The notes under the pieces are model-generated. The model did no database searches. It was not told the origin of the DNA and saw only the letters and a list, made by a program, of their open reading frames with translations. From the NCBI GenBank assembly GCA_023246655.1, contig JAHFHX010000003.1, positions 24,875 to 88,874 on the forward strand: a stretch of DNA of 64,000 nucleotides, written 5' to 3'. The stretch's first letter is position 1. Each line of letters opens with the position of its first letter. Positions 3,793 to 61,160 of this stretch are shown piece by piece. Origin of the DNA: Candidatus Magasanikiibacteriota bacterium (GTDB taxonomy: Bacteria > Patescibacteriota > Patescibacteriia > Magasanikbacterales > GWA2-37-8). Made by a program: the position numbers and the translations under genes.

Positions 3793-3835
3793 TGAATAGC
3801 ACTAATTAATTCGTTTTCAACGAAGTCGCACTCAT

Positions 3836-3930
3836 TGTCATTCCGAGCGAGGCCTCGCGGCCGACGAGGAATCTCTGTCCAACCAACGATCGTGTGAGCC
3901 AGAGATCCCTCACAGCGGTTCGGGATGACA
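3836..3930. repeat. palindromic repeat element, family A, copy A (tgtcattccgag...cgggatgaca)
   Basis: Terminal inverted repeats. Near-identical to the reverse complement of the copy at 47217-47303 and alignable with the copy at 16419-16557. Confidence 0.85.
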
Positions 3931-3988
3931 AAGTATTATTTGAGGGGAGGTAAGAGAAATTAATTAGCACTATTCATAAAATAATAAA

Positions 3989-7829: not shown

Positions 7830-7979
7830 ATAACAATTAACAAGTGTGGCTTGCTCGTTGTTATTTGTTCATTGTTAATTTATTTAAAAAAATACCCCGA
7901 CACCGCAAAATCTGCGATATCGGGGTCTGTGATAAAATCACGGACGGTTCCACCCGACGTTTCACTTTTTTTCACCAAT

Positions 7980-8010
7980 TGTCATCCCGAGCGGAGAACC
8001 GAGGGATGAC
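7980..8010. repeat. short hairpin copy of family A (gtcatcccgagcggagaaccgagggatgac)
   Basis: Termini match the family A terminal inverted repeats. Confidence 0.6.
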
Positions 8011-8148
8011 ACAATTGAGATATTATAGATACTCTGAGAGTGGTACCATATCGGTCCCGACTAGGTCGGGATAAACTGGGCTGGTTCTCATACTAACGTA
8101 TCTTAACAATACTGTACTCAATCGCTTCAAGTCTGTCAAGATCGTCGA

Positions 8149-16310: not shown

Positions 16311-16418
16311 GACGACCTTGCGTTCACCACAAAAATTTCCACGACTGAGTTTATCCAAAATGACAAATATACGAGTTGTGCTAATTAATTTTCCCTAAAT
16401 TTGGCTCAAATACCGTTT

Positions 16419-16557
16419 TGTCATCCCGAGCAAGCCTTCCGCCAAAGGCGGACACAGCGCGAGGCCTGCCCGCCTCTGGCGGGAGGGATCTCTCTGTCCG
16501 TCGTTGGTTGATTGAGACAGAGATTCCTCACCCCTGCGACGGGGATTCGGAATGACA
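16419..16557. repeat. palindromic repeat element, family A, copy B (139 bp)
   Basis: Runs from tgtcatcccgag to ggaatgaca. The internal segment gagggatctct...cagagattcctc is shared with copies A and C. Confidence 0.85.
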
Positions 16558-16627
16558 AGTGTTTTTTGGCTAAAATGAAAGAGGTTAATTAGCATAACTC
16601 GTTAATTTCAAATCAATATCAAAGCGA

Positions 16628-25081: not shown

Positions 25082-26085
25082 TAAAATAATCGTCGTAACC
25101 ACCGCAGCGCTTGATACATCTTATATCTGACCGGCGAAATAATCAAATCAAACGTACCCGGGTCTTCAGCTACTGTCCCGCCAAACCCAAGTTTAAATCT
25201 GGTCATGCGAGCGTACTGATGTTTCAAATTATATTGATATCTTTCATTTCTATCACTGTGAACTGTGCTTGGCGCAATTCCAAAAAAATCATACTGACTG
25301 TATCCCAACTTTTTGCCCAACTGAATCCCTTCCCACTGTATAAGATGTGAGGCCATCAATTGTCGAGAGTCGTGATCTGAAGCACCAAAAAGATATGTCA
25401 ACGTATCTCCAAAACCAACCAACACCGCGGCGGCCACCGGTTGCTCATTATAATAAATCGTAATCTGGTGTGTTAATGGCGAAGCTAAAACTGCCTGATA
25501 ATGTTCTCTCGGATGGAGACGAAATCCATCGCGCTCGGCGGTCTTATGACTCAATTTCCAAAAACTGTCAAAATCTTTTAGTCTTTCAATCTTCAACTCT
25601 TTCTTCTGTGCTAACCGAATATTATATCGAGTTTTTTCGTGCATGTTGGCGAGGAGCTCGTCATTAGATTTGCTGAGATCAAGAATGGTAGTGGCACGGG
25701 GGGTGAGGTCGATGGATTTGTTAATTAACAATGAACAACTATCAATTAACAAATGTGATGGCTCAACTCTAAACAAAATAATTTTTCGAGCCAAAAAATA
25801 ATCCTTAAAACATCCCCAAACACTCGTTAATTGTTCTTTATTAATTGTTAATTTCGCCACCGGCCCAGCGGGACAAAACCCATACCTCATACCAAACGGC
25901 AACTTAGTATACACTACCTGCGCCTGCGCAACGATTTCGCTACCATCACTCACCCGCAATCGTTCAACAAATTTTCCCTCACTGTGCAAAATCTCCCCCC
26001 ATTCCCACGACTGTAAAAATGACCCGTTATGCTCGGTAAGCCAGGAATTCCAAGTTTTTTTATCATGAGCTAGATGGATATCCAT
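25081..26085 (-). CDS. FemAB-family peptidoglycan interpeptide-bridge peptidyltransferase
   Basis: N-terminus WNSWLTEHNGSFLQSWEWGEIL and overall FemX-like layout. 334 aa. Confidence 0.75.
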   Translation of the reverse strand: MDIHLAHDKKTWNSWLTEHNGSFLQSWEWGEILHSEGKFVERLRVSDGSEIVAQAQVVYTKLPFGMRYGFCPAGPVAKLTINKEQLTSVWGCFKDYFLARKIILFRVEPSHLLIDSCSLLINKSIDLTPRATTILDLSKSNDELLANMHEKTRYNIRLAQKKELKIERLKDFDSFWKLSHKTAERDGFRLHPREHYQAVLASPLTHQITIYYNEQPVAAAVLVGFGDTLTYLFGASDHDSRQLMASHLIQWEGIQLGKKLGYSQYDFFGIAPSTVHSDRNERYQYNLKHQYARMTRFKLGFGGTVAEDPGTFDLIISPVRYKMYQALRWLRRLF

Positions 26086-27868: not shown

Positions 27869-28654
27869 ATGTATCGATCTATGTCACTCGCCTACAATTC
27901 CCTTCCCGAAATTGCCGAAAAAAATTTTCCAAGCCTCGAGGAAAAAATTGGTATCACTTTCAAAAAACCCGAATACCTCATCCAAGCCTTTGTCCATCGC
28001 TCATATTTAAATGAGCACCACGATTTTCCCCTTGGACAGAATGAGCGTTTAGAATTCTTAGGCGATGCCGTACTAGAACTTATTGTTACTGAATTTCTCT
28101 TTGATGAATATGGAAATCCGGAGGGCGAACTCACCAACTGGCGTGCTGCCCTCGTAAACGCCATCATGCTTTCCAAAATTGCCTACGAAATTGGCATGGA
28201 GCCCTTCCTGTTTCTCTCTCACGGCGAAGCTAAAGATACGGGCACTAAGGCACGAGATTATATCATGGCCAATGCTATTGAAGCTCTCATTGGAGCAATT
28301 TATCTTGACCTCGGTTACCCGATGGCCCAACAATTTGTGACTCGGTGGGTACTCACCAAGCTCCCAGAAGTGCTGGAACAAGGTCTTTACCTTGATGCGA
28401 AAAGTCGATTCCAAGAAGCGGCCCAGGAACTTTTAGGTATTACACCCACTTATCGGGTACTACACGAAGAAGGACCAGATCATGCCAAGAATTTTCGTGT
28501 TGGTATCTTTCTTGATAAAGAGCTGGTAGCAACTGGTGAAGGAACCAGCAAGCAAGAAGCCCAGACCCAGGCGGCCGAGGCGGCCGTGAAAATAAAAGGT
28601 TGGAAAGGGCCGCATATTAATATTGTAAAACGACAAACCGGAGACCCGATATAA
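27869..28654 (+). CDS. rnc: ribonuclease III
   Basis: Catalytic signature ERLEFLGDAVLELIVTEFLF, and a C-terminal dsRNA-binding domain. Confidence 0.9.
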   Translation: MYRSMSLAYNSLPEIAEKNFPSLEEKIGITFKKPEYLIQAFVHRSYLNEHHDFPLGQNERLEFLGDAVLELIVTEFLFDEYGNPEGELTNWRAALVNAIMLSKIAYEIGMEPFLFLSHGEAKDTGTKARDYIMANAIEALIGAIYLDLGYPMAQQFVTRWVLTKLPEVLEQGLYLDAKSRFQEAAQELLGITPTYRVLHEEGPDHAKNFRVGIFLDKELVATGEGTSKQEAQTQAAEAAVKIKGWKGPHINIVKRQTGDPI

Positions 28655-28656
28655 CC

Positions 28657-28747
28657 AGTCCGTAAAGTCAAAAGTTTGTAAAGTCCGTAAAGTGACGCTT
28701 GACCAACATTTTACAGACTTTATGGACTTTTGACTTTATAAACTTTC
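28657..28747. repeat. repeat module upstream of tRNA-Lys: agtccgtaaagtcaaaagtttgtaaagtccgtaaagt, then an inverted GACTTTAYR block
   Basis: A 37-bp block is duplicated exactly at 28840-28876. The two halves of the module form a quasi-palindrome. Confidence 0.8.
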
Positions 28748-28758
28748 TACTAATCACT

Positions 28759-28831
28759 GGATCGGTAGCTCAGCTGGTAGAGCAGGGGCCTCTTAAGCCC
28801 AAGGTCCCGGGTTCGATCCCCGGCCGATCCA
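28759..28831 (+). tRNA. tRNA-Lys, anticodon CTT
   Basis: Cloverleaf folded by hand. Acceptor ggatcgg / ccgatcc, D-arm gctcagctggtagagc, anticodon loop ctCTTaa, T-arm ccgggttcgatccccgg. Confidence 0.85.
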
Positions 28832-28839
28832 CTAATGAT

Positions 28840-28930
28840 AGTCCGTAAAGTCAAAAGTTTGTAAAGTCCGTAAAGTCACAATGCGTTAAAACTTTATGAC
28901 TTTATGACTTTCGACTTTATGGACTTTTTT
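28840..28930. repeat. second copy of the repeat module, upstream of tRNA-Arg
   Basis: The 37-bp direct repeat of 28657-28693, then actttatgactttatgactttcgactttatggacttt. Confidence 0.8.
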
Positions 28931-29506: not shown

Positions 29507-30898
29507 TCATTCAAACAACTGCGATTGTTTTGGTTTGCCCACCTTGGCATCGGGAAAAGGATCAACGACCCCATACTGGCCATCAAACCCAGGCACAATC
29601 TTTACCTTACCAACGCGCATATTCTGTATCCCAAGGGCAATATTTTTATCACTCACCGCCCGTTCAATTTCGGGTAAAGGAGAATGAAGTAAGATATTAA
29701 ATTCACTCCCTACCGCCGGTACGAGCCTTCGATATTCTATCTCTACCTTTTTACTTTTCTTCCCAGTCTCAAAACTTGCCGCGATAATCTCACGAAGAGG
29801 AACGATGTGGCGGTGAGGAATAAATTTTTCTAGTAGAATATCTTTCTCCAGGCGATCCGCCAAATCGTCCACGCGGTACAACACGCCGACCGTGAGTTTC
29901 TTCTTGCATACTGGGCAAATTTCTTTGTTTCGTTTGGTTTCAGCAGGAGTAGAGGAGAACTTACACTCTCTGTGACCGTCAAAATGATACATACCTTCTT
30001 CCGGATAAAATTCAATTGTATACAAAAACTTCTTTCGGTCACCCGTTTTTAAAATTCGGCGAATCTCGCCATACGTAATCTCAGTCTCAAACTGAAACAC
30101 ATTCGCCTCACGCCCTAAATTGTCCAGGCTATGCGCGTCAGAATTAGACACTAACACAATTTTATCAAGCTGGCTAAGCCGCCGGTTCATCGGTGGGTCA
30201 CTCGATAGCCCCGTCTCAATTGCAAAAATATGAGGTGTTAATTCTTCAAAACATTCTTCTAATGAATTATAGCCTGACTTTGAGCCAAACACTGCAAACC
30301 ATGGTGTCCAGGCGTGAGCGGGAATAACCATCATCCGCTCATCAAGCTCTAAACATATTTGGAGAACCTCCTTCCCCGAAAGTCCAATAATCGGTCGCCC
30401 ATCAGCCTTCAAGTTCGCCCCGCGATTTTCTAATTCCTCATTAAACCGTTTGGCAACTTCCAAACTCGGCGCAAAAATAAGTAAATGCAACCGCCTCACC
30501 TTATCCTTGTGTTTGTAAATACAAGAAATTTCCGTACCAAAAATAAATCTCACCGGCGTTGTCATTCCGAGCACATTCGGCAAGCTCAGTGTAAACTCCG
30601 TCGAGGAATCCATTTCACCCAAACGACCAAGGGATTTCTCCACTCCGCTTCGCCCTGTACCATACGGTACTGGGCTTCGCTCTGGTCGAAATGATAATTG
30701 ATAAGTGCCCGTCTTTCCAATCTCCACCAGATTCTCTTCCAGATGTTCCATCCACTTTGGATGCGTAAAATCCCCTGTGGCCACGAGTTGTATCCCTTTT
30801 TCCTGACAGGCTTTCACAATCTGCGGAATCTCAAGCAAAGGCGAGCAGGCTCGCGCATATTTAGAGTGGATGTGAAAATCAGCGATGATCTCGATCAT
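29507..30898 (-). CDS. PHP-domain protein of the TIGR00375 / EndoQ-like family, carrying an in-frame repeat insertion
   Basis: N-terminal PHP motif DFHIHSKYARACSP, and a C-terminal zinc ribbon CPVCKKKL. Extra segment RPERSPVPYGTGRSGVEKSLGRLGEMDSSTEFTLSLPNVLGMTTP. Confidence 0.55.
   Translation of the reverse strand: MIEIIADFHIHSKYARACSPLLEIPQIVKACQEKGIQLVATGDFTHPKWMEHLEENLVEIGKTGTYQLSFRPERSPVPYGTGRSGVEKSLGRLGEMDSSTEFTLSLPNVLGMTTPVRFIFGTEISCIYKHKDKVRRLHLLIFAPSLEVAKRFNEELENRGANLKADGRPIIGLSGKEVLQICLELDERMMVIPAHAWTPWFAVFGSKSGYNSLEECFEELTPHIFAIETGLSSDPPMNRRLSQLDKIVLVSNSDAHSLDNLGREANVFQFETEITYGEIRRILKTGDRKKFLYTIEFYPEEGMYHFDGHRECKFSSTPAETKRNKEICPVCKKKLTVGVLYRVDDLADRLEKDILLEKFIPHRHIVPLREIIAASFETGKKSKKVEIEYRRLVPAVGSEFNILLHSPLPEIERAVSDKNIALGIQNMRVGKVKIVPGFDGQYGVVDPFPDAKVGKPKQSQLFE
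30561..30697. repeat. family A-type palindromic element inserted in frame inside the PHP-domain gene
   Basis: Sequence tgtcattccgagcacattcggcaagctc...ggcttcgctctggtcgaaatgata, the same subtype as the intergenic copy at 30910-31005. Confidence 0.7.
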
Positions 30899-30909
30899 AA
30901 TATATGAAA

Positions 30910-31005
30910 CGTCATTCTGAGTGAAACGAAGAATCTTCTACTTACGCCACAATCACCACACGACTCGCATAAAAGGAAGATTCTTCGCTGGCGCTCTGAA
31001 TGACA
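30910..31005. repeat. family A-type palindromic element, intergenic, between the PHP gene start and the livF stop
   Basis: Runs from gtcattctgagtgaaacgaagaatcttc to gaagattcttcgctggcgctctgaatgaca. Confidence 0.75.
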
Positions 31006-36306: not shown

Positions 36307-36428
36307 TGTCATTGCGAGGAGGCCCGATTCGCATCGGGATGATGTGGCAATCTCCTTGTTTACAAAATCAAATCTCCCATAAGCAGGGGGATTGCTTCGT
36401 TGTTCGTTCCTCACTCCTCGCAATGACA
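36307..36428. repeat. palindromic element, subtype tgtcattgcgaggag...ctcgcaatgaca, intergenic
   Basis: Shares termini and internal blocks (ggcaatctcc, ggggattgcttcg) with the element inside sucD at 44525-44616. Confidence 0.8.
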
Positions 36429-36430
36429 CT

Positions 36431-37318
36431 TCAAACACTCCACCGCGCAAAAATTCCTGCCGGCAGCAATCGCTCACTATCCTGTTCCGCAATCGTTAAT
36501 TCGCCAATCTCAATCTCTCCCCCAAAATCCTTCATTAAATCACCCAAACTATTTTTATACGCCACCGCCGAATACCCCGAAGCATAGCCATTGATTAAAA
36601 AAAATAATGGCTTCTCGCTCAAAACCTGTTTACACAAATCGAGCAGTTCCAAAAAATGCTCCTCAATTTTCCATACTTCCCCGCCCGGCCCATGCCCAAA
36701 CGCCGGCGGATCCATAATAATACCGTCATATTTTCGGCCGCGTTTAATTTCTCGTTTCACAAACGTCCGTGCGTCATCAAGTATCCATCTGATTGGTTTA
36801 TCCTTGAGCCCACTCAACTCCGCATTATCTCGCCCCCACCCAATCGCCACTTTTGATCCATCGAGGTGCACCACTTCCGCCCCTGCTTGAGCGGCAGCCA
36901 ACGTTGCCCCGCCGGTATATCCAAACAAATTCAAAACACTCGTCGGACTTTCTGACTTTATAGACTTTCGACTTTCGACTTGCTGGAGAACCCAACCCCA
37001 ATTCCCCGCCTGCTCGGGAAACACTCCCGTATGCTTAAACGCCGACAATTTAATCCAAAATTTGAGACCCGCCAACTCAATCGGCCAGCGCTCCGGCAAT
37101 TTTTTCCGTGTCTGCCACTCAGCACTTTTAGAATCACGCTTAAAATAAGCATCCGCTTTATTCCATTCACTTTCTGACAAGCGTTTTTTCCACAACGCTT
37201 GTGGGTCTGGCCGCGCAATAACGGCTTCGCCATATCGCTCCAACTTTTCGCCGTCGCCGCTATCGAGGAGCGAATATCCTTTGTTAGTTTTTGTTTCTAA
37301 AATTGAATACGTAATCAT
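36431..37318 (-). CDS. class I SAM-dependent RNA methyltransferase (RlmI/YccW-like)
   Basis: Motif I VLNLFGYTGGATLAAAQAGA and motif IV DGIIMDPPAFG. Contains an in-frame phased-repeat segment at 36945-36990. Confidence 0.65.
   Translation of the reverse strand: MITYSILETKTNKGYSLLDSGDGEKLERYGEAVIARPDPQALWKKRLSESEWNKADAYFKRDSKSAEWQTRKKLPERWPIELAGLKFWIKLSAFKHTGVFPEQAGNWGWVLQQVESRKSIKSESPTSVLNLFGYTGGATLAAAQAGAEVVHLDGSKVAIGWGRDNAELSGLKDKPIRWILDDARTFVKREIKRGRKYDGIIMDPPAFGHGPGGEVWKIEEHFLELLDLCKQVLSEKPLFFLINGYASGYSAVAYKNSLGDLMKDFGGEIEIGELTIAEQDSERLLPAGIFARWSV
36945..36990. repeat. GACTTTAYR-type repeat block inside a coding sequence
   Basis: Sequence ctttctgactttatagactttcgactttcgactt, which encodes QQVESRKSIKSESPT. 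Confidence 0.6.
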
Positions 37319-38127
37319 AGCGGACTTTTAATATTTTTTAAACTCGGATTCGTAACGTGCGTATAAATTTGCGTGGTACGAATATTCGCGTGACCAAGCA
37401 ACTCCTGCACAAATCTAACATCAGTTCCGTTTTCGAGCAAGTGCGTGGCAAAACTGTGGCGCAAACTATGGAACGTGGCCGGTTTGATAATTCCGACCCG
37501 GCGCATCGCCTGGTAAAAAACTTTTTGCGCCGTTGCCTCCACTAACCGCCCGCCGCGTTCACTCGCGAACAGATAGTCGCTCCCCTCTTTTCCAACCATG
37601 CATTTTTGTATCTCCGGCGCCAAAACAGCCGAAAATACCGTTAACCGATCTTTTTTACCTTTGCCCTGTCGTACCGTAACTGTTAGTCCGTTCAAATCGA
37701 TATCCTGCACTCTCAATCGCACCGTCTCGCTTACCCGCAAGCCCGCGGCATACGTAATCGCCAAAAGCGTACGATGCTTCAGATTGCTGGTGCAATCAAT
37801 CATCCGTTTAATTTCCTCCCTGCTTAAAACTACCGGCAACCTATTCGCCTGCTTGGGGTGGCGCAATTTAACGTATCCCTCTCTATGATAAATCTGAGTA
37901 AAAAGGTAATTGAACGCGTTAGCATACAAAGAAATAGTCTGGCTCGCCAACCCTTGCTTCTATTTATGATACAAAAATTCCTTAATCTCCTCCACCGACA
38001 ACTCTCGCGGCGGCTTGTGGTAAAAAACATAGATATCCTTTACAACGTGCGTATATGCCTCAATGGTTTTTGGGCTATAGTTGTACAACTTCATCTCACG
38101 TACTATAATATCAAGCAAGTTAGCCAT
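37315..38127 (-). pseudogene. XerC/XerD-like tyrosine recombinase interrupted by an in-frame TAG (37960-37962)
   Basis: The N-terminal 55 aa (MANLLDIIVREMKLYNYSPKTIEAYTHVV...) and the catalytic domain (HSLRHSFATHLLENGTDVRFVQELLGHANIRTTQIYTHV) share one frame, separated by a single TAG. Confidence 0.65.
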
Positions 38128-40424: not shown

Positions 40425-41150
40425 TTATCCTACATACTCAATCTCACTCTCATCCAATCTCCGTATTCCCTCCCCACTTGTTATTTCTTCATAGGTATGT
40501 GCAATGAGCCCCGGTATGCGGCCAAGAATGAAAAAACCGGTGGCGATACGCCAATCAAACCCCATGTCGGATAAAATCGCGGCGTTGGCACCATCCATAT
40601 TTAATGGCAAAGGCTTAGAAGAAATTTTGTTCAATGCCTCGCCAACCGCCACAGCAAACGCACAGTGCTTGCCATAGAGGCCAGTTTCTTTGGCAATCAT
40701 AAATAGAGTGTCGGAACGGTTATCATGGGTTAATACCCGATGCCCATATCCTGGAATGCGGACTTTTTTTTCTTTAAGATTCTTCACCAAGGCATCGACA
40801 TTAGCATTTTCCACATTTGTCTGCAAAAACTGCGCTGCCCCCTCAAGCGCCCCGCCATGTTTACTGCCACCCAGCGCTAAAATTCCGGCTGCGATTGACG
40901 TGTGCATTGCATTTCCAACCGACGCCACCATCCGTGGCACCATAGCAGATGCAACTCCAACACCGTGATCAATCATAGCTGTTAACATCGCATTGAGCAT
41001 CTTTGTTTCCGCTGGCGTTGGCAATTGCCCTCGCCAAATTAAAAATACGGTCTCAACGAAACTGTTATTCCGAACAAGATCGTGGAGATTTTTCCCTCGA
41101 ATAATTTCTTGGCCATCGTTGACATTGCTAATTGCAGTTTTCCACTTCAT
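40425..41150 (-). CDS. citrate synthase-like small protein (citryl-CoA lyase-like)
   Basis: Contains SKHGGALEGA (aligns with the citrate synthase HGGANE motif), GYGHRVLTHDNRSD (aligns with the GYGHAVLR catalytic His motif) and NMDGANA. Only 241 aa, covering just the C-terminal catalytic part. Confidence 0.55.
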   Translation of the reverse strand: MKWKTAISNVNDGQEIIRGKNLHDLVRNNSFVETVFLIWRGQLPTPAETKMLNAMLTAMIDHGVGVASAMVPRMVASVGNAMHTSIAAGILALGGSKHGGALEGAAQFLQTNVENANVDALVKNLKEKKVRIPGYGHRVLTHDNRSDTLFMIAKETGLYGKHCAFAVAVGEALNKISSKPLPLNMDGANAAILSDMGFDWRIATGFFILGRIPGLIAHTYEEITSGEGIRRLDESEIEYVG

Positions 41151-41241
41151 ATATGATCGAAAGATTAAAAGACTAGAAGGCTAGAAGATTGTGACCGCTC
41201 GCGAATCTCACAAAATCTTATAATCTTTCAATCTTATAATC

Positions 41242-42006
41242 TTAAATCTTCCTCGCCATAATCGCCATAAACAGCGGTATCTCTGCAAAACTTACATTCT
41301 CTTTTTTATTTGTACTCTTTTTATCACTCACCCACTCTTCAATTTTCTCAATCATGAGTCCTGCGTCAAACAAAAATTGAGCATACGCTGACAGTGGCTG
41401 ATGAAAACTCAAAGTTCGCTCACTCGCCCGCTGCCCAGGATGCATTTCAATGGGTATTTTCATGGGCGTCATATACCGTGTTACCCATCGATGTTGTTGT
41501 TTATTTTCGGAAATTCCCCAGCCGCTCTGTCGGGGAATTCTAAAGGCTGGGTGATTAATTACAAATATAAATCGCCCATCCCTTTTTAAATGCTGCGTTG
41601 CATTCGCAATCGCTCGCTCCGGATGCTCCATATTCTGCAAACTAAATAAGGCTATGGCATGAGAAAAATCTTTTTTAACAATCGGCAGTGGCGCCGTGGC
41701 ATCGGCCACTGTATATTCATGTTGTGAATTTTTATCCTGCATTCGCGCCGCCTTAATTAAGCTCGGAGCCGAATCAATGCCATGATAAAAAATATCTTTA
41801 GAAAGATGGCGCGCTAAAATTCCCTGACCTGCACCAATATCAAGCACACTGTCCCCGGCTTTCAAATGCGTGAGTTTAAGCACCCCAGGTATCACCACAT
41901 GTTGATGATAGTAGTGCCCTTCCTTGCCAACTAACTTATTATACCAACCACTGGATTGTTCCCACGACGTCTCGCTCCGTTGATAAAATTTTTTCTTTTT
42001 ATGCAT
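41242..42006 (-). CDS. class I SAM-dependent methyltransferase
   Basis: Motif I VLDIGAGQGILARHL. Confidence 0.7.
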   Translation of the reverse strand: MHKKKKFYQRSETSWEQSSGWYNKLVGKEGHYYHQHVVIPGVLKLTHLKAGDSVLDIGAGQGILARHLSKDIFYHGIDSAPSLIKAARMQDKNSQHEYTVADATAPLPIVKKDFSHAIALFSLQNMEHPERAIANATQHLKRDGRFIFVINHPAFRIPRQSGWGISENKQQHRWVTRYMTPMKIPIEMHPGQRASERTLSFHQPLSAYAQFLFDAGLMIEKIEEWVSDKKSTNKKENVSFAEIPLFMAIMARKI

Positions 42007-42047
42007 ACATCACTATTTCCTTATTTCTCTATTTCATTATTTCCGTT

Positions 42048-43004
42048 TTATTCTCTAAATTCCCCCTGCCGCACCGAACGGCGCAGAAGCCACCACAATA
42101 CTACCACACCACCAACAATAATAACCACTCGCTTTGGATTATTATGATCAGAAACAGTATTCCATATCGGCTCTACCTTCTCCACATAAGGCACTGCCTT
42201 ATTCCAATACTCCTGCCCCTTGGCATAATATTCCTTACCCTTATCAAATGTCGACTTTGTTTGAGAATAAACTGCTTCGATTTTTCCAGCTGTCGAGGTA
42301 ATGGTGTTAGCTACCTGTTCTGCTTGAGCTAAAATTTCTCGATTCTTCTGAAAAATATTCTGCGCACTAGCCGCAATATTGCTAGCAATACCAAAAGCAC
42401 TGGTAGTTTCTTTTCTTCCTGGAGCCACCAACGTCAAGGTATCACCTTCTTTCTTCACTAGCACGCGAGTAGTGCCAAGAATGGCTAGCCGCTCAGTTGA
42501 TGTATTTACTGCTAACGTGCTACTGGAGAATTCCGTCTGGGGAGTGGGGAATGTTACGGCCCCAGGCACAATCTTCGTATCACCAATCGTGAGCGGCGCA
42601 CCAGTGAAACTATTTATCTGTCCAACATCTAATTCTTGCCGCTTACCTTTTTCGTCAATCGCCACCGCCTTAATGAATCGTGCTCCTAATGTATGTTCAC
42701 CTTCCGTTGGCTCCCAAAAAACGCGTATCTGTTGGGCGCTCTCTTTAAATAAATTTTTTATTTCCACCGTATCAATTATTTCGCCATTATCATAAAACCC
42801 CACCTGTCCCTCCAAAGCATAATAATCATTATTAATAATTACACTATATACGCGCACCGTCTCATGTGGAACAAACGACGTGCGCGAAAACCAAATGCCA
42901 GTCGAGGGCACAAAGCCAACGCCAGCGGCATAAACACTAGATGGTAATAAAAAAATTATCAAAAATAGAATTCTTCCAAAGATACGCATAACATTATATT
43001 TCAA
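42048..43004 (-). CDS. hypothetical secreted protein with a C-terminal membrane anchor
   Basis: Signal peptide ILFLIIFLLPSSVYA and a C-terminal TM helix VVIIVGGVVVLWWLL. Low GC. Confidence 0.55.
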   Translation of the reverse strand: MKYNVMRIFGRILFLIIFLLPSSVYAAGVGFVPSTGIWFSRTSFVPHETVRVYSVIINNDYYALEGQVGFYDNGEIIDTVEIKNLFKESAQQIRVFWEPTEGEHTLGARFIKAVAIDEKGKRQELDVGQINSFTGAPLTIGDTKIVPGAVTFPTPQTEFSSSTLAVNTSTERLAILGTTRVLVKKEGDTLTLVAPGRKETTSAFGIASNIAASAQNIFQKNREILAQAEQVANTITSTAGKIEAVYSQTKSTFDKGKEYYAKGQEYWNKAVPYVEKVEPIWNTVSDHNNPKRVVIIVGGVVVLWWLLRRSVRQGEFRE

Positions 43005-43840
43005 TTCATAAACGCAGATACAAATTCCTGCGTATTAAGATGGAGTTCTCGTACTTGAGGCAGTTTGCCAGATATAAGATATTTACGAAGCAAACCAGTA
43101 TTATATTCTAAAGCTAATCGTTGTGTTTTTTGTACCGATTGTTTCTCTGATACAGCTGCACGGAAATATAAGGGACTCTTAATCTTTCGAAATACTCTAT
43201 GGATAATGGTTTGATACTGCTCACCTAATAACCAAGATATCAAAATAATTTTGTTAGCACTAAGGTCATTATGAGCAATTTTTTGTGCTACTATCCTAAA
43301 ACCCTCCATAAGCTGAGAGAGTTGCGCTGTGGCACTCAATGTATTGGGATCAATATGAAACGACAAGGCTCCATCTGGTTCCTGCTCATAATATACTACC
43401 TTATTGACGTACCTATCTTGATTTTTGGGATGTTCCTCATGAGCTCCCCAAAACGCAAGGTAGTAACGATCTCGTCCAAGAGAAACAATTTTTTCTGCTA
43501 ACTTTAAAGGAGTAAATGAGCTACTCTCTGCTTGTTGAAGAGCAAAACTTTTCAACTTATCAATTTTATCATGTAGTTGACGCATACGTACTTTAACCGT
43601 TGATTGTATGTCCGTCGATACGGACTGCAGTATCTCTTGATAGAGCTCAAAACAACGAGCAAATCGTCGAAAGGATTCATTATGTATCAAATTTTGAATC
43701 TTTTCTTGTATTTCATGAGGGTTAGATTGACTATCATACAAATCACCGGGTTCGAGCAAATTATAAAAATCATCCGGGGTTCCCTCTCTCATATTGGATT
43801 TCTTAGAACCAAATAATCCCATATATTTGATACTAAACAA
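43001..43840 (-). CDS. hypothetical cytoplasmic protein (279 aa)
   Basis: Overlaps the downstream gene by 4 nt, suggesting an operon. Markedly AT-rich. No motif recognised. Confidence 0.5.
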   Translation of the reverse strand: MFSIKYMGLFGSKKSNMREGTPDDFYNLLEPGDLYDSQSNPHEIQEKIQNLIHNESFRRFARCFELYQEILQSVSTDIQSTVKVRMRQLHDKIDKLKSFALQQAESSSFTPLKLAEKIVSLGRDRYYLAFWGAHEEHPKNQDRYVNKVVYYEQEPDGALSFHIDPNTLSATAQLSQLMEGFRIVAQKIAHNDLSANKIILISWLLGEQYQTIIHRVFRKIKSPLYFRAAVSEKQSVQKTQRLALEYNTGLLRKYLISGKLPQVRELHLNTQEFVSAFMN

Positions 43841-44801
43841 ATGGTTTCACCAACTTCACTAACTCTTCATATGTATCGGCAATCATTGCCCCGACTGCTT
43901 TGAGCGCTGCTTCCTTCTCTGTTGCCCCTTGTCCTCGCGCTACAATTGCTCCCGCGTGGCCGATGTTCATGCCTTCGGGGAGCATCTGAGCAAACTTGCC
44001 CCCGATGTAAATCGCCAAAGGCTTCGTAAATTCTTTATTTTTTATTAATTCAACAATCTCAAACTCATAACTGCCACCATGCTCACCAAAAATAATCACG
44101 GCTTTGGTTTGTTCGTCTTTCTCAAACAGTCGTAACACATCAGCATACGTTGTGCCCATGAGCAAATCACCACCAACATGCACTGCTGCACTCTGCCCGA
44201 GTCCCGCTTGCCGAATAATCCACGACAATTCATTCGTCATACCGCCCGAACGAGAGATAACACCAATCGAACCGGGCTGAAAAATTTCCCGCACTAAGGG
44301 ACCGCCGACAACTCCAATTCGTCCGACATCTGGCACGATCAAACCCAATGAACTCGGACCAACAATCCTGACTCCTCGCTCTTTCGCCGCTGCCAAACAA
44401 TAGGCCGTATCTTTAATCGGAATCCGCTCCACAAAAATATTTATGAGAGGAATATTGTTTTCAATCGCTTCGAGGATGGCGGCTTTGGCGGCGAAAGGGG
44501 GAACGTAAACAACAGCTACCCAATTGTCATTGCGAGGAGCCGAAGGCGACGCGGCAATCTCCCCGTTTTCCTCTTGTCGGGGGGATTGCTTCGCTCCTTC
44601 GTCGCTCGCAATGACAGCGAGAGCCTCCCGCACCGTATCAAACACCGGCTTACCCTCAACTTCCTGTCCACCTTTTTTCGGTGTCACGCCGCACACTACA
44701 TTAATGCCGTAATCCAACATTGCCTTGGCCGCCTTTTGGCCTTCTTTACCAGTCATGCCTTGAATGAGAACGTTGGTTTCGGATGAAATAAGAATACTCA
44801 T
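43833..44801 (-). CDS. sucD: succinate--CoA ligase alpha subunit-like (SucD family), with an in-frame repeat insertion
   Basis: CoA-binding motifs NVLIQGMTGKEGQ and VVYVPPFAAKAAILEAIENNIPL. Extra segment ASDEGAKQSPRQEENGEIAASPSAPRND. Confidence 0.8.
   Translation of the reverse strand: MSILISSETNVLIQGMTGKEGQKAAKAMLDYGINVVCGVTPKKGGQEVEGKPVFDTVREALAVIASDEGAKQSPRQEENGEIAASPSAPRNDNWVAVVYVPPFAAKAAILEAIENNIPLINIFVERIPIKDTAYCLAAAKERGVRIVGPSSLGLIVPDVGRIGVVGGPLVREIFQPGSIGVISRSGGMTNELSWIIRQAGLGQSAAVHVGGDLLMGTTYADVLRLFEKDEQTKAVIIFGEHGGSYEFEIVELIKNKEFTKPLAIYIGGKFAQMLPEGMNIGHAGAIVARGQGATEKEAALKAVGAMIADTYEELVKLVKPFV
44525..44616. repeat. palindromic element (tgtcattgcgaggag...tcgctcgcaatgaca) inserted in frame inside sucD
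   Basis: Same subtype as the intergenic copy at 36307-36428. Confidence 0.75.
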
Positions 44802-46042
44802 ACTGTTTTTGTGGTCACTGCGTTAACCATCTCTGCCAACACTTTCGCCGTCTCGCTCATACTTGTCTCTTTGGTAAATAATTTTATATTGAAATTATTC
44901 CGCGTTGCACACTCTCGCATCAGAGCAAACGCTTCTTGGCTCTCCGGACCATCGCGACGCACCACAATCGGATACGTCGGTTTTATTTCATCGAGCGCAT
45001 CGATAATTCCCAAAAAGGTTTCTTTGATATTGGTAAAATTCGCCACCACTCCCGCCATCCAAAGTCCGCGGAGCGCCGGCTTAGACAAAACAATTTTTGC
45101 GAGTTGATACACTTTCTCTCGCGGCGGATTCCCCGAATACTCCGTATAATTTGCCGGTTTGAGACCAGCTTTTATTAATGCGTCCATATTCGCAATGCTT
45201 GCTCCGCCGCCATTCAAAATCATTGCAATATCGCCGTCGAGCTCAATATATTTCCCGGCCGTACCTCGGTAATACGCTTCGCCTTCATCAATTTTTTTCA
45301 CAGCGACCTCCCGCTCCGTCGGCAGCCGCCCCATCATTGTCCGCGGCTCGAGTTGATTCCACTCCTCATGCCTAAAAAACGCGTCATCATCAATTGCCAC
45401 TTTTGCATCCGCCGCGACCCATTGACCATCGGCGGTTTTAACGAGCGGGTTGATTTCTACGAGACGGGTGTCTTCGGTTAGGAAGCAAGACCAGAGCGAT
45501 TGCACCACCGACGACCACCCCCGCCCCCCTCCTTCGTAAGGAGGGGTCAACGAATCGTTGCGGCCACTTGAGGTGTCCCCTCCTTGCGAAGGAGGGGAAT
45601 AAGGGGTGGTTTCGCTTCGCACATCCACCCACGTCTTTTCAATCTTTTCTTCCGGAACATCCTCAATATCCATTCCGCCCTGTCGCGAATAAATCACCAC
45701 CGGCTGTTTTTTGTTGGTATCGTAAGTAATCGATAAATAATGTTCCTCAGCAATGGAAAGTTCCTCCTCAATTAAAACTGCCGCTACATATTGCCCGCTA
45801 ATATTTAGCTTAAACAAATCATTAATAGCGGCTACACCATCTTCAACACTGGAACAAAATCTTATTCCATTATTCTTCCCGCGCTTACCACTAAGCACTT
45901 GGGCTTTCACAACAAAATTCTTAATTCTTAGCTCTTCAATCTTCATTCTGGCATCATCTCCACGCCGAACCACTACGCCTTTTGGCGTGACAATGCCGTG
46001 CTTTTCAAATAATTTTTTCCCTTCAAATTCGTATAAATTCAT
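44798..46042 (-). CDS. sucC: succinate--CoA ligase beta subunit-like (SucC family, ATP-grasp), with an in-frame repeat insertion
   Basis: N-terminus MNLYEFEGKKLFEKHGIVTPKG, and ...LVEINPLV. Extra segment YSPPSQGGDTSSGRNDSLTPPYEGGGRGWSS relative to the SucC layout. Confidence 0.8.
   Translation of the reverse strand: MNLYEFEGKKLFEKHGIVTPKGVVVRRGDDARMKIEELRIKNFVVKAQVLSGKRGKNNGIRFCSSVEDGVAAINDLFKLNISGQYVAAVLIEEELSIAEEHYLSITYDTNKKQPVVIYSRQGGMDIEDVPEEKIEKTWVDVRSETTPYSPPSQGGDTSSGRNDSLTPPYEGGGRGWSSVVQSLWSCFLTEDTRLVEINPLVKTADGQWVAADAKVAIDDDAFFRHEEWNQLEPRTMMGRLPTEREVAVKKIDEGEAYYRGTAGKYIELDGDIAMILNGGGASIANMDALIKAGLKPANYTEYSGNPPREKVYQLAKIVLSKPALRGLWMAGVVANFTNIKETFLGIIDALDEIKPTYPIVVRRDGPESQEAFALMRECATRNNFNIKLFTKETSMSETAKVLAEMVNAVTTKTV
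45505..45625. repeat. palindromic repeat element, family B (cccctccttcgtaaggagggg ... cccctccttgcgaaggagggg), inside the sucC coding sequence
   Basis: Two near-perfect 21-bp palindromes separated by a gaatcgttgcgg-containing spacer. Homologous to the element in rsmE. Confidence 0.75.
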
Positions 46043-46857: not shown

Positions 46858-47222
46858 ACATCATCGACGTCTATTGTAAAATCCATCCTAAACTCCTTGC
46901 CATAATCTTTAAACCCCAAACTCTCGTACCAGGCATGCACCTGCGGACGACTATAGCGGCTGGTGCCGATAAGCTTGTAGCACCCGTGCCCTTTGGCCTC
47001 GGCAATCACCATTTCGACGAGCTTGGTACCAATGCCTCGCCCTCGCATATCTTCATCAACTAAAAGATCAGTAAAAAAACCATACAAAGTATCGTCTTTA
47101 GAAATAACATACAGGTAAGCGCGCCCCACCTCTCGCCCATTCTCTTCAGCACTAACCCGTACTGCATATGCATCACGTTTAATTTCTTTTTTAAACTCCA
47201 TAACATCGTTTACGATTGTCAT
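46854..47222 (-). CDS. GNAT-family N-acetyltransferase
   Basis: Motif A RGRGIGTKLVEMVIAEAKGHG. The track extends the N-terminus into the repeat at 47217-47303; the start at MTIVNDV (47222) is preferred. Confidence 0.7.
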   Translation of the reverse strand: MTIVNDVMEFKKEIKRDAYAVRVSAEENGREVGRAYLYVISKDDTLYGFFTDLLVDEDMRGRGIGTKLVEMVIAEAKGHGCYKLIGTSRYSRPQVHAWYESLGFKDYGKEFRMDFTIDVDDV

Positions 47223-47303
47223 CCCGACCGCAGGAGGGATCTCTGGCTCACTCGCCAACGGACAGAGATTCCTCGTCGGCCGCGAGGCCTCACTCGGAAT
47301 GAC
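47217..47303. repeat. palindromic repeat element, family A, copy C
   Basis: Its reverse complement is near-identical to copy A (3836-3930). Overlaps the yvcK stop codon and the N-terminal extension of the GNAT ORF. Confidence 0.85.
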
Positions 47304-48276
47304 AATTAAATAAATCCACCAAAATTTTCGACAATTTCTCCGAACTCAACCCTCCTTCTTCCTTTTCAAAATCTGCTCCAATAATATTTTTATTTTTAAT
47401 ATTTTCAATATCTTTCATAAACGTGCCCCATTTTTTTTCTGCATACTTTCTCTGCTGCGCTGGAGTCAGCATGGAATTATTATACACCACCACATCAATT
47501 TTTCGTGGCAGATAGCGCTCTAATTGCTCTACAAAATCACTCAACCGTTCCGGGCCGGTCTCACCTTCAAGCTCATAAGCATCGCCCGCAACATATATGA
47601 GTTGCGCCGGTGATTGTGTAATGGCTTCTTTCGTTCCGGTTGGCAACAATGTTGCCACGACACTTGTATAAAGACTCCCCGGACTCAAAAAAATATAATC
47701 GGCTTGTTCAATAACCTCACCAGCGCCATCGTACATAACAGCATTTGGTTCCAACCATACTCGGCTAATCTTGAGCGATCGATCATACGTCGGTCGATCA
47801 ATCGCCGCTTCAGTCTTTATAATGGTACCATTCACAAGCTCCGCACACAAATCATTCATCTCAAGCGTCGCGGGGTATACATGCCCAACCGCTTCCACCA
47901 CTTCCTCAAGAGTTCTCAAGGCGCTTACATAATCACTCTCGTACGCAGCTAAAAAAGCGATAAATAAACTCCCCAAATTTGGGCGACTCGTTCCAGCAAA
48001 CACGGCATCGAGTTGCGGCGCCTTTGTACAACGATTTGTATAAAAAATTTTTCTAAGAACTGCATAATCATAAGGAGAAAGTGCAAGCGCTGCCCGAACA
48101 ACATCGGCTGGTGGCGGAACATTAAACTCACGCCGCACCACCCCCATAGAGCGACCGGAATCACTCATGGTGATAACTGCTGAAATATCTAAACGATCAG
48201 AAAATTTCTTGAGAGCGTTCAAGACAACGGCACTTCCGTTTCCCCCACCAATAACAACAACTTTCTTCTTAACCAT
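47290..48276 (-). CDS. yvcK: gluconeogenesis factor YvcK / CofD-like (UPF0052) protein
   Basis: Motif VVVIGGGNGSAVVLNALKKF...ISAVITMSDSGRSMG. 328 aa. The last 4 codons and the stop are supplied by the repeat element. Confidence 0.75.
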   Translation of the reverse strand: MVKKKVVVIGGGNGSAVVLNALKKFSDRLDISAVITMSDSGRSMGVVRREFNVPPPADVVRAALALSPYDYAVLRKIFYTNRCTKAPQLDAVFAGTSRPNLGSLFIAFLAAYESDYVSALRTLEEVVEAVGHVYPATLEMNDLCAELVNGTIIKTEAAIDRPTYDRSLKISRVWLEPNAVMYDGAGEVIEQADYIFLSPGSLYTSVVATLLPTGTKEAITQSPAQLIYVAGDAYELEGETGPERLSDFVEQLERYLPRKIDVVVYNNSMLTPAQQRKYAEKKWGTFMKDIENIKNKNIIGADFEKEEGGLSSEKLSKILVDLFNCHSE

Positions 48277-54445: not shown

Positions 54446-54566
54446 TTTATTATAATATAGCCAAAATTATTATATTTTTGCCGTGAGGACCTAGCGAGCC
54501 TGTCACAATTGGCCGTGGCGAGCGAACCCGCAACAAGAAAATATAATAATTTTGGCTATATTATAG
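54446..54566. promoter_or_regulatory. 28-bp perfect inverted repeat (ttattataatatagccaaaattattata / tataataattttggctatattataataa) with a 58-bp GC-rich spacer, in the divergent trmB-pfk intergenic region
   Basis: Arms at 54446-54478 and 54537-54566, read directly from the sequence. Confidence 0.7.
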
Positions 54567-58219: not shown

Positions 58220-58570
58220 CTAACTGAGAGATTCTATTAATTTATTGAGCAAAAAGCCAATCTCACGAACTCTTTGTAATTGTCGATCTAATTCTTGTTG
58301 AGTAATATATAGTAATCCTACCGCCAATTCCAGATAACATTGACACTCGTTCAGTGATCCCTTCGATATATATAAATAGCGAATAAAATCTTTATCCGTT
58401 TGTTTTCCTCTTCCTTCTACAACATTCGCCATCACTGACACTGCCGCACGTCGTAGTTGGCTGATTAAACCAAACAACTCTTCTTTTGGAAATTTTTTTG
58501 TCAACTTATAAATATCTAGCACAAACGCTAACGCCTTCTGCCAAACTAATAACTTGTGATAATCATGCAT
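58220..58570 (-). CDS. four-helix-bundle protein (23S rRNA intervening-sequence protein family)
   Basis: LLVWQKALAFVLDIYKLTKKFPKEELFGLISQLRRAAVSVMANVVEGRGK is typical of the PF05635 family. Confidence 0.8.
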   Translation of the reverse strand: MHDYHKLLVWQKALAFVLDIYKLTKKFPKEELFGLISQLRRAAVSVMANVVEGRGKQTDKDFIRYLYISKGSLNECQCYLELAVGLLYITQQELDRQLQRVREIGFLLNKLIESLS

Positions 58571-58629: not shown

Positions 58630-59709
58630 TTACACAATACTCACCTCACTACACAAATACACATCCTGCACCGCATTGAGCAATTTAATTCCTTCCGCCA
58701 GTGGCTTCTGAAAAGATTTCCGACCAACAATTAACCCCATCCCACCGGCTCGCTTGTTAATGACAGCTGTTTTCACTGCTTCTGCTAAATCACTTGCGCC
58801 ACCACTCTCCCCGCCGGAGTTAATAAGACCAACTCGCCCCGCAAAACCGTTTACCACTTGGTAACGACACAAATCAATTGGATGGTCACTGCATAAATCG
58901 GTGTACATTTTTTCGGAATATTTTCCAAATTTCTTATCACCCTGGTTCAAAGCCTTGTAGCCGCCATTCCTCATCGGCAACTTTTGCTTTACAATGTCAG
59001 CCTCGATCGTTGCACCAAGATGGTTGGCTTGGCCCGTGAGATCAGCGGCGTCATGATAGTCCACACCGTCAACCTTGAAAGCATTGTTACGTAGATAACA
59101 CCAGAGCACGGTGAACATTCCTTTTTTGTGAGCTTCCGCAAACGCTGCGGAGACTTCTTGAATTTGGCGTTTGGATTCTGGCGAACCAAAATAAATCGTA
59201 GCCCCCACACCCGCCGCGCCCATGTCCTACGCTTGTTGCACCGAACCGAACATAATTTGATCGTAGTCATTGGGGTATCGCAAAAAATCATTGTGGTTCA
59301 ATTTTACAATAAAGGGAATTTTGTCCGCGTATTTTTTGCTCACCATTCCTAAAACCCCAAACGTCGATGCCACTGCATTGCATCCACCTTCCACAGCAAG
59401 TTTGACAATACGTTCCGGGTCAAAATAGTCCGGGTTCTTGGCAAAACTGGCGCCCGCACTATGTTCAATTCCCTGGTCAACCGGGAGAATAGAAACGTAA
59501 CCGGTTCCAGAGAGTCGCCCATAATCGCGCATCTTCTTTAAACTCTTAAGCACCGCTGGCGTCCGGTCGGAAATACTTAACACATCATCAATAAAACTTG
59601 GGCCTGGCGCGTGCAAACGGTCTTTGGACATTTTGGGAGAATTAAAGGCGAGTAAGTTGTCGCTGTCGCTACCAAGAAGTTGTTGAATGATTGAATAGAG
59701 TTGGGACAT
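58630..59709 (-). pseudogene. fbaB: class I fructose-bisphosphate aldolase (DhnA/FbaB type) interrupted by an in-frame TAG (59227-59229)
   Basis: Both halves align end-to-end with E. coli FbaB ([55 protein letters not shown]). The TAG sits where E. coli has Phe in EQAFNMGA. Confidence 0.75.
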
Positions 59710-60099: not shown

Positions 60100-60173
60100 A
60101 ACAACATAACAGTTTCATAATATAGCAATCGAACAATTGAACTATTAAACGGGACAGAGATCCTTCGCTCTGC

Positions 60174-61160
60174 TCAGGATGACAGTTTATGATGGGTCTC
60201 CAAAAACCTAACCGTCCCGCTCTTCACCCGCATCACGACCGAATGCGTAACGCAATGATTGGACGTATAACGTACACCTTTCAAGAGCGGTCCGTCAATC
60301 ACACCCGTGGCCGTAAACGTCAAATCCTGGCCCTTGGCCAAATCATCGAGTGTTAAAATTTTAAAAATATCCGTGATACCAAGTTTGTGCAAACGCTCAT
60401 GTTGTTCCGCATTTTTGGGTGCTAATTTCGCCTGAAAATCTCCACCCAAACATTTAATTGCCGCACTCGCCAAAACCGCCTCAGTCGAGGCACCAATTCC
60501 CAGAAGCATATCGATACCGGAATCAGAGAGACTGGGCGCGATCGCGCCGGCTACATCGCCGTCGGTAATCAAGCGCACCCGAGCGCCGGTACAACGAATA
60601 TCTTTGATGAGTTGTTCGTGCCGCGGACGATCAAGTACCAACACAACCATGTCACACATGTCTTTGCCGAGTCGCTTAGCAACTCGTTCAATATTCTCGG
60701 CCGGTGATAATTTCAAATCAATCGCGCCTTTGGCACCAGGCCCGCAGGCAACTTTTTCCATATACATATCCGGCACTTTAAGGAGCGTGCCTTTGGCCCC
60801 CGTCGCGATAACCGCAATGGCATTAGGCCGGCCGTTCGCCACACTATCGGTGCATTCCAATGGGTCAACCGCTATATCTAGTTCCACTCCATTCCCCGTG
60901 CCCAATTTTTCTCCCACATATAATTCTGGCGCTTCATCCTTCTCTCCTTCGCCAATCACTACCTCGCCATGAAAATCAATCTGGTGAAAACGCTGGCGCA
61001 TTTCATTTACCGCGGCTTGGTCAGCCGCTTTGCCATCCCCCCGCCCGGTCCACTCCGCCGCTGCAATCGCCGCCGCTTCGGTGACACGAACAAATTCGAG
61101 TGCTAAGTTACGGTCCATATTCGAAATGAGTGAGAAAAATGAGTGAATGGGTTCAGTCAT
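60174..61160 (-). CDS. glpX: fructose-1,6-bisphosphatase class II (GlpX)
   Basis: Motifs LALEFVRVTEAAAIAAAEWTGRGDGKAADQAAV and GEGEKDEAPELYVGEKLG. 328 aa. Confidence 0.85.
   Translation of the reverse strand: MTEPIHSFFSLISNMDRNLALEFVRVTEAAAIAAAEWTGRGDGKAADQAAVNEMRQRFHQIDFHGEVVIGEGEKDEAPELYVGEKLGTGNGVELDIAVDPLECTDSVANGRPNAIAVIATGAKGTLLKVPDMYMEKVACGPGAKGAIDLKLSPAENIERVAKRLGKDMCDMVVLVLDRPRHEQLIKDIRCTGARVRLITDGDVAGAIAPSLSDSGIDMLLGIGASTEAVLASAAIKCLGGDFQAKLAPKNAEQHERLHKLGITDIFKILTLDDLAKGQDLTFTATGVIDGPLLKGVRYTSNHCVTHSVVMRVKSGTVRFLETHHKLSS

Follow-up and report, generated by a model that had tools for sequence, protein, structure and literature searches.

The locus at positions 44525-44616 of a 64,000-nt stretch of DNA from a Candidatus Magasanikiibacteriota bacterium (contig JAHFHX010000003.1; the whole stretch is referred to below as the window and represents 64 kb of a genome of roughly 1 Mb) raises the question of how an enzyme gene came to be read in frame through a palindrome, and what has kept the palindrome there. 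The segment is a 92-nt imperfect palindrome that, in minus-strand reading, lies inside the open reading frame (ORF) 43833-44801, which encodes a SucD-family protein, and it is a member of a dispersed family of palindromic repeats. An earlier note on this DNA had described it as a palindromic element placed in frame within a sucD reading frame, and both the quoted sequence and its position in this minus-strand ORF were confirmed. We consider it probable that the segment represents a non-autonomous hairpin repeat that is tolerated as a nearly neutral passenger in a loop of the enzyme.

On the coding strand the element begins with the 5' outer arm TGTCATTGCGAG (44605-44616) and ends with the 3' outer arm CTCGCAATGACA (44525-44536), which are complementary at 12 of 12 positions. 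Between them the inner arms GCAATCCCCCCG and CGGGGAGATTGC, 12 nt each (44554-44565 and 44578-44589), enclose a 12-nt terminal loop, an arrangement spanning 44554-44589 on the minus strand that was apparent from both the inverted repeat and the predicted structure. Folded as RNA, the 92 nt reached -56 kcal/mol compared to -36.4 +/- 3.8 kcal/mol for shuffled sequences (z = -5.2), a value equaled by none of 200 shuffles. The palindrome is real and its fold significant. Rather than a simple palindrome, the element is a doublet of two hairpin units, the first made up of the 5' outer arm together with a GAAGCAATC module and the second of the 3' outer arm together with a GATTGC module.

This doublet architecture extended to the other copies of the family. 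Full elements contain four related pentamers, A to D, as in ATTCC...GGAAT...ATCCC...GGGAT. Pentamers B and C were located by anchors that are independent of the variable bases, and pairs were counted on 17 distinct copies, a small sample that is in part related by descent. Pairing within units (A-B, C-D) was observed in 98.8% of the cells with 29 double-sided changes, while pairing along one long hairpin (A-D, B-C) was found in 92.9% with 22 such changes. Chimeric doublets combining ATTCC/GGAAT with ATTGC/GCAAT (L019 and L082), as well as the solo units described below, fit the unit model only, so that from its sequence each element can be described as two inverted hairpin units of about 30 nt (consensus TGTC-AT[T/C]NN-GAG...CGA-NN[A/G]AT-C) along with distal hairpins that vary and a loop at the center.

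Two frames of the element are free of stop codons and one of them is used in the SucD-family gene, its length of 92 nt resulting in read-through in this frame. The coding-strand reading around the element is ...EALA-VIASDEGAKQSPRQEENGEIAASPSAPRND-NWVAVVYVPPF with the insert peptide V-I-A-S-D-E-G-A-K-Q-S-P-R-Q-E-E-N-G-E-I-A-A-S-P-S-A-P-R-N-D, and the predicted tryptic peptides that cover the insert are QEENGEIAASPSAPR and NDNWVAVVYVPPFAAK. Alignments by HMMER with solved alpha chains of succinyl-CoA synthetase (SCS) were interrupted precisely here: query residues 1-62 and 96-319 aligned to residues 6-67 and 75-292 of 2yv2, and the alignment with 3ufx jumped from query residue 62 to 95 against 61 to 67 of the chain. 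The surplus of 26-27 residues relative to these chains, and of 26 over the 296 aa that close orthologues have as their baseline, agrees with the approximately 27 extra residues claimed previously. A phmmer search with the 34-aa insert peptide, a short and compositionally biased query, returned no matches at E <= 0.001 among 1.84 billion representative proteins, and two insert peptides joined artificially into a 60-aa query yielded only six word-sharing candidates, none of which scored.

Comparison with orthologues revealed that the insert is absent from most of them. The 120 best homologues had a modal length of 296 aa, and the norm at this position was a loop of 11 residues (xxQFPDVNTTA-like), which the outgroups share. 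Of 101 parsed orthologues, 29 exhibited loops of 16-57 residues at the same place, occupied by several palindrome types. These included VIAS...PRNDNW inserts of the TGTCATTGCGAG type, VILS...AQNDK inserts of the TGTCATTCTGAG type, VIPT... inserts, GGGG / PPYEGGG hairpins of a second family, and short remnants such as ...DSSASPQND.... The inserts added between 5 and 46 aa and differed in sequence and element family, while the reading frame was kept in all of them; the only residues conserved among copies were those derived from the palindrome arms. In the insert-bearing relatives for which DNA was available, the insert is palindromic with a strong hairpin fold rather than a shared segment lacking this signature: insert DNA folded at -49 (L081), -67 (L082) and -70 kcal/mol (L001) compared to -5 to -8 kcal/mol for insert-free loops.

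Insert-bearing alleles were scattered among insert-free close relatives. Since a neighbor-joining tree of the 101 orthologues lacked support values, pairwise identities were used in its place. Outside the loop, the insert-bearing P0029 was 94.0% identical to the insert-free P0114 while its identity to the other insert-bearing alleles never exceeded 82.8%, and the nearest insert-free alleles of P0003, P0028 and P0030 were P0025 (93.3%), P0014 (92.2%) and P0057 (90.9%), respectively. At the level of sequence this shows that the insertion is derived relative to the 11-residue loop. Separately, the contig encoding P0028 (ENA ERZ1305449) contains an ORF for a 99-aa GIY-YIG nuclease between its SucC-like gene and its SucD-like gene, the latter with a VILS-type insert.

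An AlphaFold2 model of the host protein built from 42 orthologues (mean predicted local distance difference test score, pLDDT, of 85.9) places the insert in a coil, residues 70-93, between helix 57-69 and strand 94-98 of the CoA-binding domain, with block-mean pLDDT values of about 49-57 over residues 71-90. The core of the model superposed on SCS-alpha crystal structures with target-normalized TM-scores of 0.93-0.94, and the enzyme core is thus predicted to be intact despite the insert. In Rossmann-type domains the helix-to-strand connections face away from the ligand site, and the position of the insert is for this reason plausibly permissive.

The 322-aa host protein contains the Pfam domains CoA_binding and Ligase_CoA expected of SCS-alpha as well as the phosphohistidine motif GHAGA (catalytic), which is intact along with QGMTGKEG and SRSGGMTNE. 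The sucD label holds at this family level, but the surrounding cluster looks like that of a citryl-CoA synthetase. The partner gene 44798-46042 bears Pfam Citrate_bind and matched the large subunit CcsA of citryl-CoA synthetase best (6hxq_B, E = 3.7e-66, compared to 7.5e-50 for SCS beta). Downstream lies a Citrate_synt ORF (40425-41150, 241 aa, C-terminal domain, citryl-CoA-lyase-like) of the kind also present in relatives. The cluster (40425-46042; 8775-12835 in L161) appears to resemble a ccsA-ccsB-...-ccl arrangement more than classical sucCD, and the host gene may be better named SucD-family or citryl-CoA-synthetase-small-subunit-like. The nearest proteins and contigs belonged to metagenome-assembled genomes (MAGs) of Candidatus Magasanikbacteria and other Patescibacteria. 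A cluster for citryl-CoA synthetase and lyase would represent an unexpected metabolism in a bacterium of the candidate phyla radiation (CPR).

The partner subunit is interrupted as well. A second, unrelated doublet-hairpin insert, CCCCTCCTT-NNN-AAGGAGGGG present twice (about 45515-45609, minus strand), lies in frame in the SucC/CcsA-like gene and adds 27 aa to a 380-aa baseline. The same SucC-like loop holds a TGTCATTCTGAG element in L161 and other inserts or palindromes in L003, L089 and L115.

Within the window the terminal 13-mer (up to two mismatches) occurred eight times compared to 1.5 times in shuffled sequences, and none of 100 shuffles reached eight. Across the 64 kb the TGTCAT...ATGACA family has at least nine members, fragments included; three overlap coding sequence, two of them in frame and one giving a stop codon, while the rest are intergenic. 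The GC content was 0.60 for the element, up to 0.60-0.62 for full doublets and 0.46-0.62 over all copies, compared to 0.45 for the window. As previously proposed, the 122-nt intergenic copy at 36307-36428 (minus strand) is of the same subtype as the SucD copy. The two agree in their termini and in the inner GCAATC / GATTGC modules and differ in the variable arms and loop. The intergenic copy fills exactly the gap that separates a methyltransferase stop codon from a pseudouridine synthase start codon. The ATTGGGT directly 3' of the SucD copy was considered as a part of the element and rejected because this intergenic copy lacks it.

The other copy in frame, of the TGTCATTCCGAG subtype (30560-30696, minus strand), is read as SFRPERSP...LPNVLGMT in a 463-aa ORF without a Pfam match (29507-30898), and a further intergenic doublet, of the TCATTCTGAG subtype, is found just upstream (30910-31005). 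Between the genes for CofD and a GNAT acetyltransferase, the copy at 47217-47304 (minus strand) contributes the last codons and the stop of CofD. At the orthologous place in L161 (7229-7262) there is one unit only; it belongs to another subtype and likewise gives the stop. The remaining copies are intergenic: a doublet between convergent genes (3836-3930) enclosed by the arms of an AT-rich inverted repeat (3781-3811 / 3958-3988), a 139-nt doublet (16419-16557) nested in another such repeat (16365-16388 / 16585-16608), the single hairpin unit TGTCATCCC-loop-GGGATGACA (7980-8012) and the single right-hand unit GACAGAGATCCT...AGGATGACA (60152-60187). At other CPR loci (L019, L021, L082, L134 and L161) distinct copies were found in frame in SucC-like and SucD-like genes as well as in one other ORF. 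The two nested arrangements are composite palindromes (3781-3988 and 16365-16608) in which TGTCAT doublets lie within AT-rich repeats of the form ...GCACTAATTAATT / AATTAATTAGC....

Outside the window, the exact termini together with the inner GAAGCAATC / GATTGC modules were detected in 40 IMG/VR contigs (L167-L206) of 36-67% GC. These contigs encode portal, terminase and capsid proteins and contain 46 copies, ten of them inside ORFs of at least 150 aa. Plasmids in PLSDB gave no match, and the GenBank phages gave only three partial matches, all to uncultured gut phages. Phages are thus a possible vehicle of the element. No insertion sequence was seen in the 64-kb window, and the only recombinase among the ORFs scanned with Pfam was a 211-aa tyrosine recombinase of the Phage_integrase family (37315-37950).

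The junctions of the SucD copy were reproduced in independent data. Over 11,259 nt, L166, an ENA contig from another assembly, matched the window at 99.991% identity, and its junctions were the same. The sole difference is a C>T exchange within the element (L166 position 8260, coding-strand base 75), next to the base that differs in L161, which changes a C-G pair to a U-G pair; this single event hints at hairpin-associated mutability. Contigs from NCBI, ENA, JGI and Logan data (including L161/L162, L163 and L081) likewise carried this element type, placed at an identical nucleotide position, and the VIAS-type copies in the window, L161, L163 and L081 exhibited identical junctions together with a few changed flanking codons, which indicates either common descent of an insert-bearing segment or site-specific insertion. 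The organism of the window and that of L161 both occur in ENA sample ERZ27276474, and the two regions are syntenic with 66-85% DNA identity over aligned stretches of at least 100 nt. Similarity of the backbone to that of the window protein put the L161 protein, P0002, in only 19th place out of 100; of the three nearest backbones, one has a VILS element, one a GGGG hairpin and one no insert.

In the course of events that we consider probable, a copy of a non-autonomous hairpin repeat would have landed in, or been imported by recombination into, a sucD/ccsB-like gene, at a loop that connects a helix to a strand of the Rossmann-type CoA-binding domain and is predicted to be exposed to solvent, on the face of the sheet remote from the ligand. 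The element would most likely be transcribed and translated with the gene to give a hydrophilic, disordered loop of about 26 residues that the enzyme tolerates, and we infer that the insert persists as a nearly neutral passenger. Several observations weigh against this account. A Pfam scan that covered 59 of the window's 61 ORFs of 90 aa or more (SucCD pair excluded) revealed no Y1/RAYT, DDE or TnpB, target-site duplications were absent at the flanks read of the window copies, and no transposase was found beside the 46 phage copies among 63 neighboring ORFs scanned with Pfam, one of which was a GIY-YIG. Given the repeated occupancy of one loop, an extra loop or hairpin could also be useful. 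Furthermore, the element is identical to that of L161 at 83 of 86 positions (96.5%) with one 6-nt indel, compared to about 74% for the highly conserved sucD-like gene around it and 58-88% for 60-nt windows of this gene (binomial p of about 2e-8 if the rate of the whole gene is assumed, and of 0.006 even with the best rate of the flanks). An element kept better than its host gene does not behave as a vertically inherited, decaying neutral passenger, and the excess identity requires recent lateral spread, site-specific re-insertion or constraint at the nucleotide level. In favor of the account, on the other hand, all three substitutions (two of them in the terminal loop) alter an amino acid, and the sequence bears no sign of selection on the peptide. 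Taken together, these data point to an insert-bearing segment that may recently have spread laterally, or been re-inserted, between co-resident relatives, or else to nucleotide-level selection. Because the near-identical L161 copy sits in a backbone of such low rank and comes from the same sample, we also considered that the TGTCAT...ATGACA doublet is a phage-borne, cross-lineage element resembling REPINs (repetitive extragenic palindromic, REP, doublets forming hairpins) that is exchanged among co-resident CPR and either loop-targeted or hairpin-selected, a proposal that we regard as possible but rather doubtful.

Constraint at the nucleotide level would be expected if the hairpin were kept for a role as nucleic acid, be it in processing, stability or a translation pause of the operon mRNA or as a protein site on the DNA, with the peptide as a by-product. 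The identity to L161, a terminal loop that accounts for two of the three substitutions, the U-G pair that results from the L166 exchange and the core modules that remain constant over the range of GC content of the 40 phage contigs are in line with such a role, as is the orientation of the copies, 11 of which have the same and three the opposite direction relative to transcription. This bias, however, falls short of significance (p = 0.057), and orthologous copies are among those counted. Most orthologues function without the insert, the variable arms and loops differ freely among copies, and conservation does not extend to other syntenic copies: in L161 the CofD-GNAT copy is divergent with half of it deleted, and the families that fill the SucC loop differ between the two genomes. 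In addition, Rfam at its gathering threshold detected only three tRNAs in the whole window and, at E <= 10, only chance matches of the element to generic miRNA hairpin models, while a terminator/promoter scan detected none at the element, which lacks a terminator-like tail. We therefore regard a nucleic-acid role as unlikely. Exaptation of the insert as a functional protein loop, such as a flexible linker or an interaction surface of the synthetase complex, could explain why this loop is filled in about 29% of close orthologues and in the partner subunit too, and why the frame is always kept. It appears quite improbable in view of the differing length, sequence and family of the inserts, a conservation that tracks palindrome arms rather than peptide properties, the low-confidence coil in the AlphaFold2 model, nearest relatives that do without the insert and short remnants that point to decay. 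The 12-bp outer stem joins the junctions and a gene for RNase III is present in the window (27869-28654), so that removal of the segment, intron-like from the mRNA or intein-like from the protein, is conceivable. Yet 92 nt or about 30 aa are far below the size of group I/II introns or inteins, neither an Rfam match nor intein splice motifs were found, the intragenic copies all keep the frame and are free of stops, which would be needless if they were excised, and where a copy is read in the stop-containing frame the gene is cut short, the end of CofD being an example; this makes excision very improbable. Hairpins can mislead assembly, and the sole mismatch between the window and L166 does fall inside the element; nevertheless, an artefact of assembly or sequencing, or an old lineage-specific loop that is palindromic by chance, is hardly credible considering the identical junctions in L166, the agreement on position among NCBI, ENA, JGI and Logan contigs, the significant fold and a number of family copies far above chance.

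As a nearly neutral hairpin passenger, the element would not be without precedent. Rickettsia palindromic elements (RPE) are inserted in frame in many housekeeping genes at sites compatible with the fold (Ogata et al. 2000, 2002, via PMC10969869). Like these repeats of about 100-150 bp, the elements described here are short palindromes present in many copies in a host-dependent bacterium with a reduced genome, a large share of them is in frame in unrelated protein genes (here SucD-like, SucC-like and the 463-aa ORF) at tolerated surface segments, several families coexist and old copies decay. They differ in their host, CPR/Patescibacteria as opposed to Alphaproteobacteria, in consisting of a doublet of small hairpin units, in a core sequence that is also found in phage contigs and in the occupation of one loop by different families in different lineages; the likeness concerns behavior and no membership by sequence is claimed. 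With REP sequences, REPINs and bacterial interspersed mosaic elements (BIME) (Bertels & Rainey 2011, PMC3116915; PMC3337134) they share a short imperfect palindrome as the unit, the inverted doublet with spacer that forms a long hairpin, solo units as remnants, a high density in intergenic spacers and the lack of target-site duplications. In contrast to REPINs, which are extragenic by definition, about a third of the copies lie in coding sequence, the two units are often different variants (ATTCC + ATCCC, ATTCC + ATTGC), a conserved GTAG-like 5' tetranucleotide is missing and the Pfam-scanned ORFs of the 64 kb include no RAYT gene. Bacterial MITEs (transposable elements of the miniature inverted-repeat type; Correia, ERIC, BOX, QMITE1, Anabaena; PMC10969869) are similarly small and non-coding with inverted-repeat ends, for which the complementary termini of the present element qualify, and are sometimes read through in ORFs, but no target-site duplication was seen here, nor did the 64 kb reveal a parent insertion sequence sharing the terminal repeats. 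By analogy, the behavior appears closest to that of the Rickettsia elements and the architecture closest to that of REPINs. No relevant report was found in the literature on palindromic elements or MITEs in CPR/Patescibacteria or on the terminal motifs, and we consider the elements a new family of a known kind in a phylum for which we found no such report.

In-frame, protein-coding palindromes had been held peculiar to Rickettsia, and their occurrence in CPR, likewise reduced and host-dependent but with a different doublet-hairpin family, suggests a general route by which disordered loops derived from selfish DNA are added to essential enzymes of small genomes. If the doubtful proposal of phage-borne exchange were true, CPR would be the second independent clade after Rickettsia in which selfish palindromes remodel housekeeping proteins in a systematic way, with identifiable insertion hot spots in both subunits of the enzyme. 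The recurrently filled loops of both synthetase subunits represent a natural experiment on the tolerance of a fold, and an element conserved above its host gene offers a handle on spread between co-resident lineages. Consequences for the annotation of CPR MAGs include inflated protein lengths, spurious antisense ORFs, supplied stop codons (CofD) and split domain hits.

Apart from the TGTCAT...ATGACA family, the window contains other AT-rich palindrome families (28663-28874, 7814-7880, 25723-25853 and 54451-54565), one pair of which flanks the tRNA gene 28759-28831, while a perfect 28-nt inverted repeat lies at 54451-54565. Palindromes of the AATTAACAAT type are present as well. ORF 58220-58570 encodes a 23S rRNA intervening-sequence protein (PF05635, bAvd-like four-helix bundle). 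A DeoC/LacD-family aldolase gene (58630-59709) is broken by one in-frame TAG, with halves that match positions 2-85 and 88-229 of the Pfam model, and could represent a pseudogene, an error or a case of read-through.

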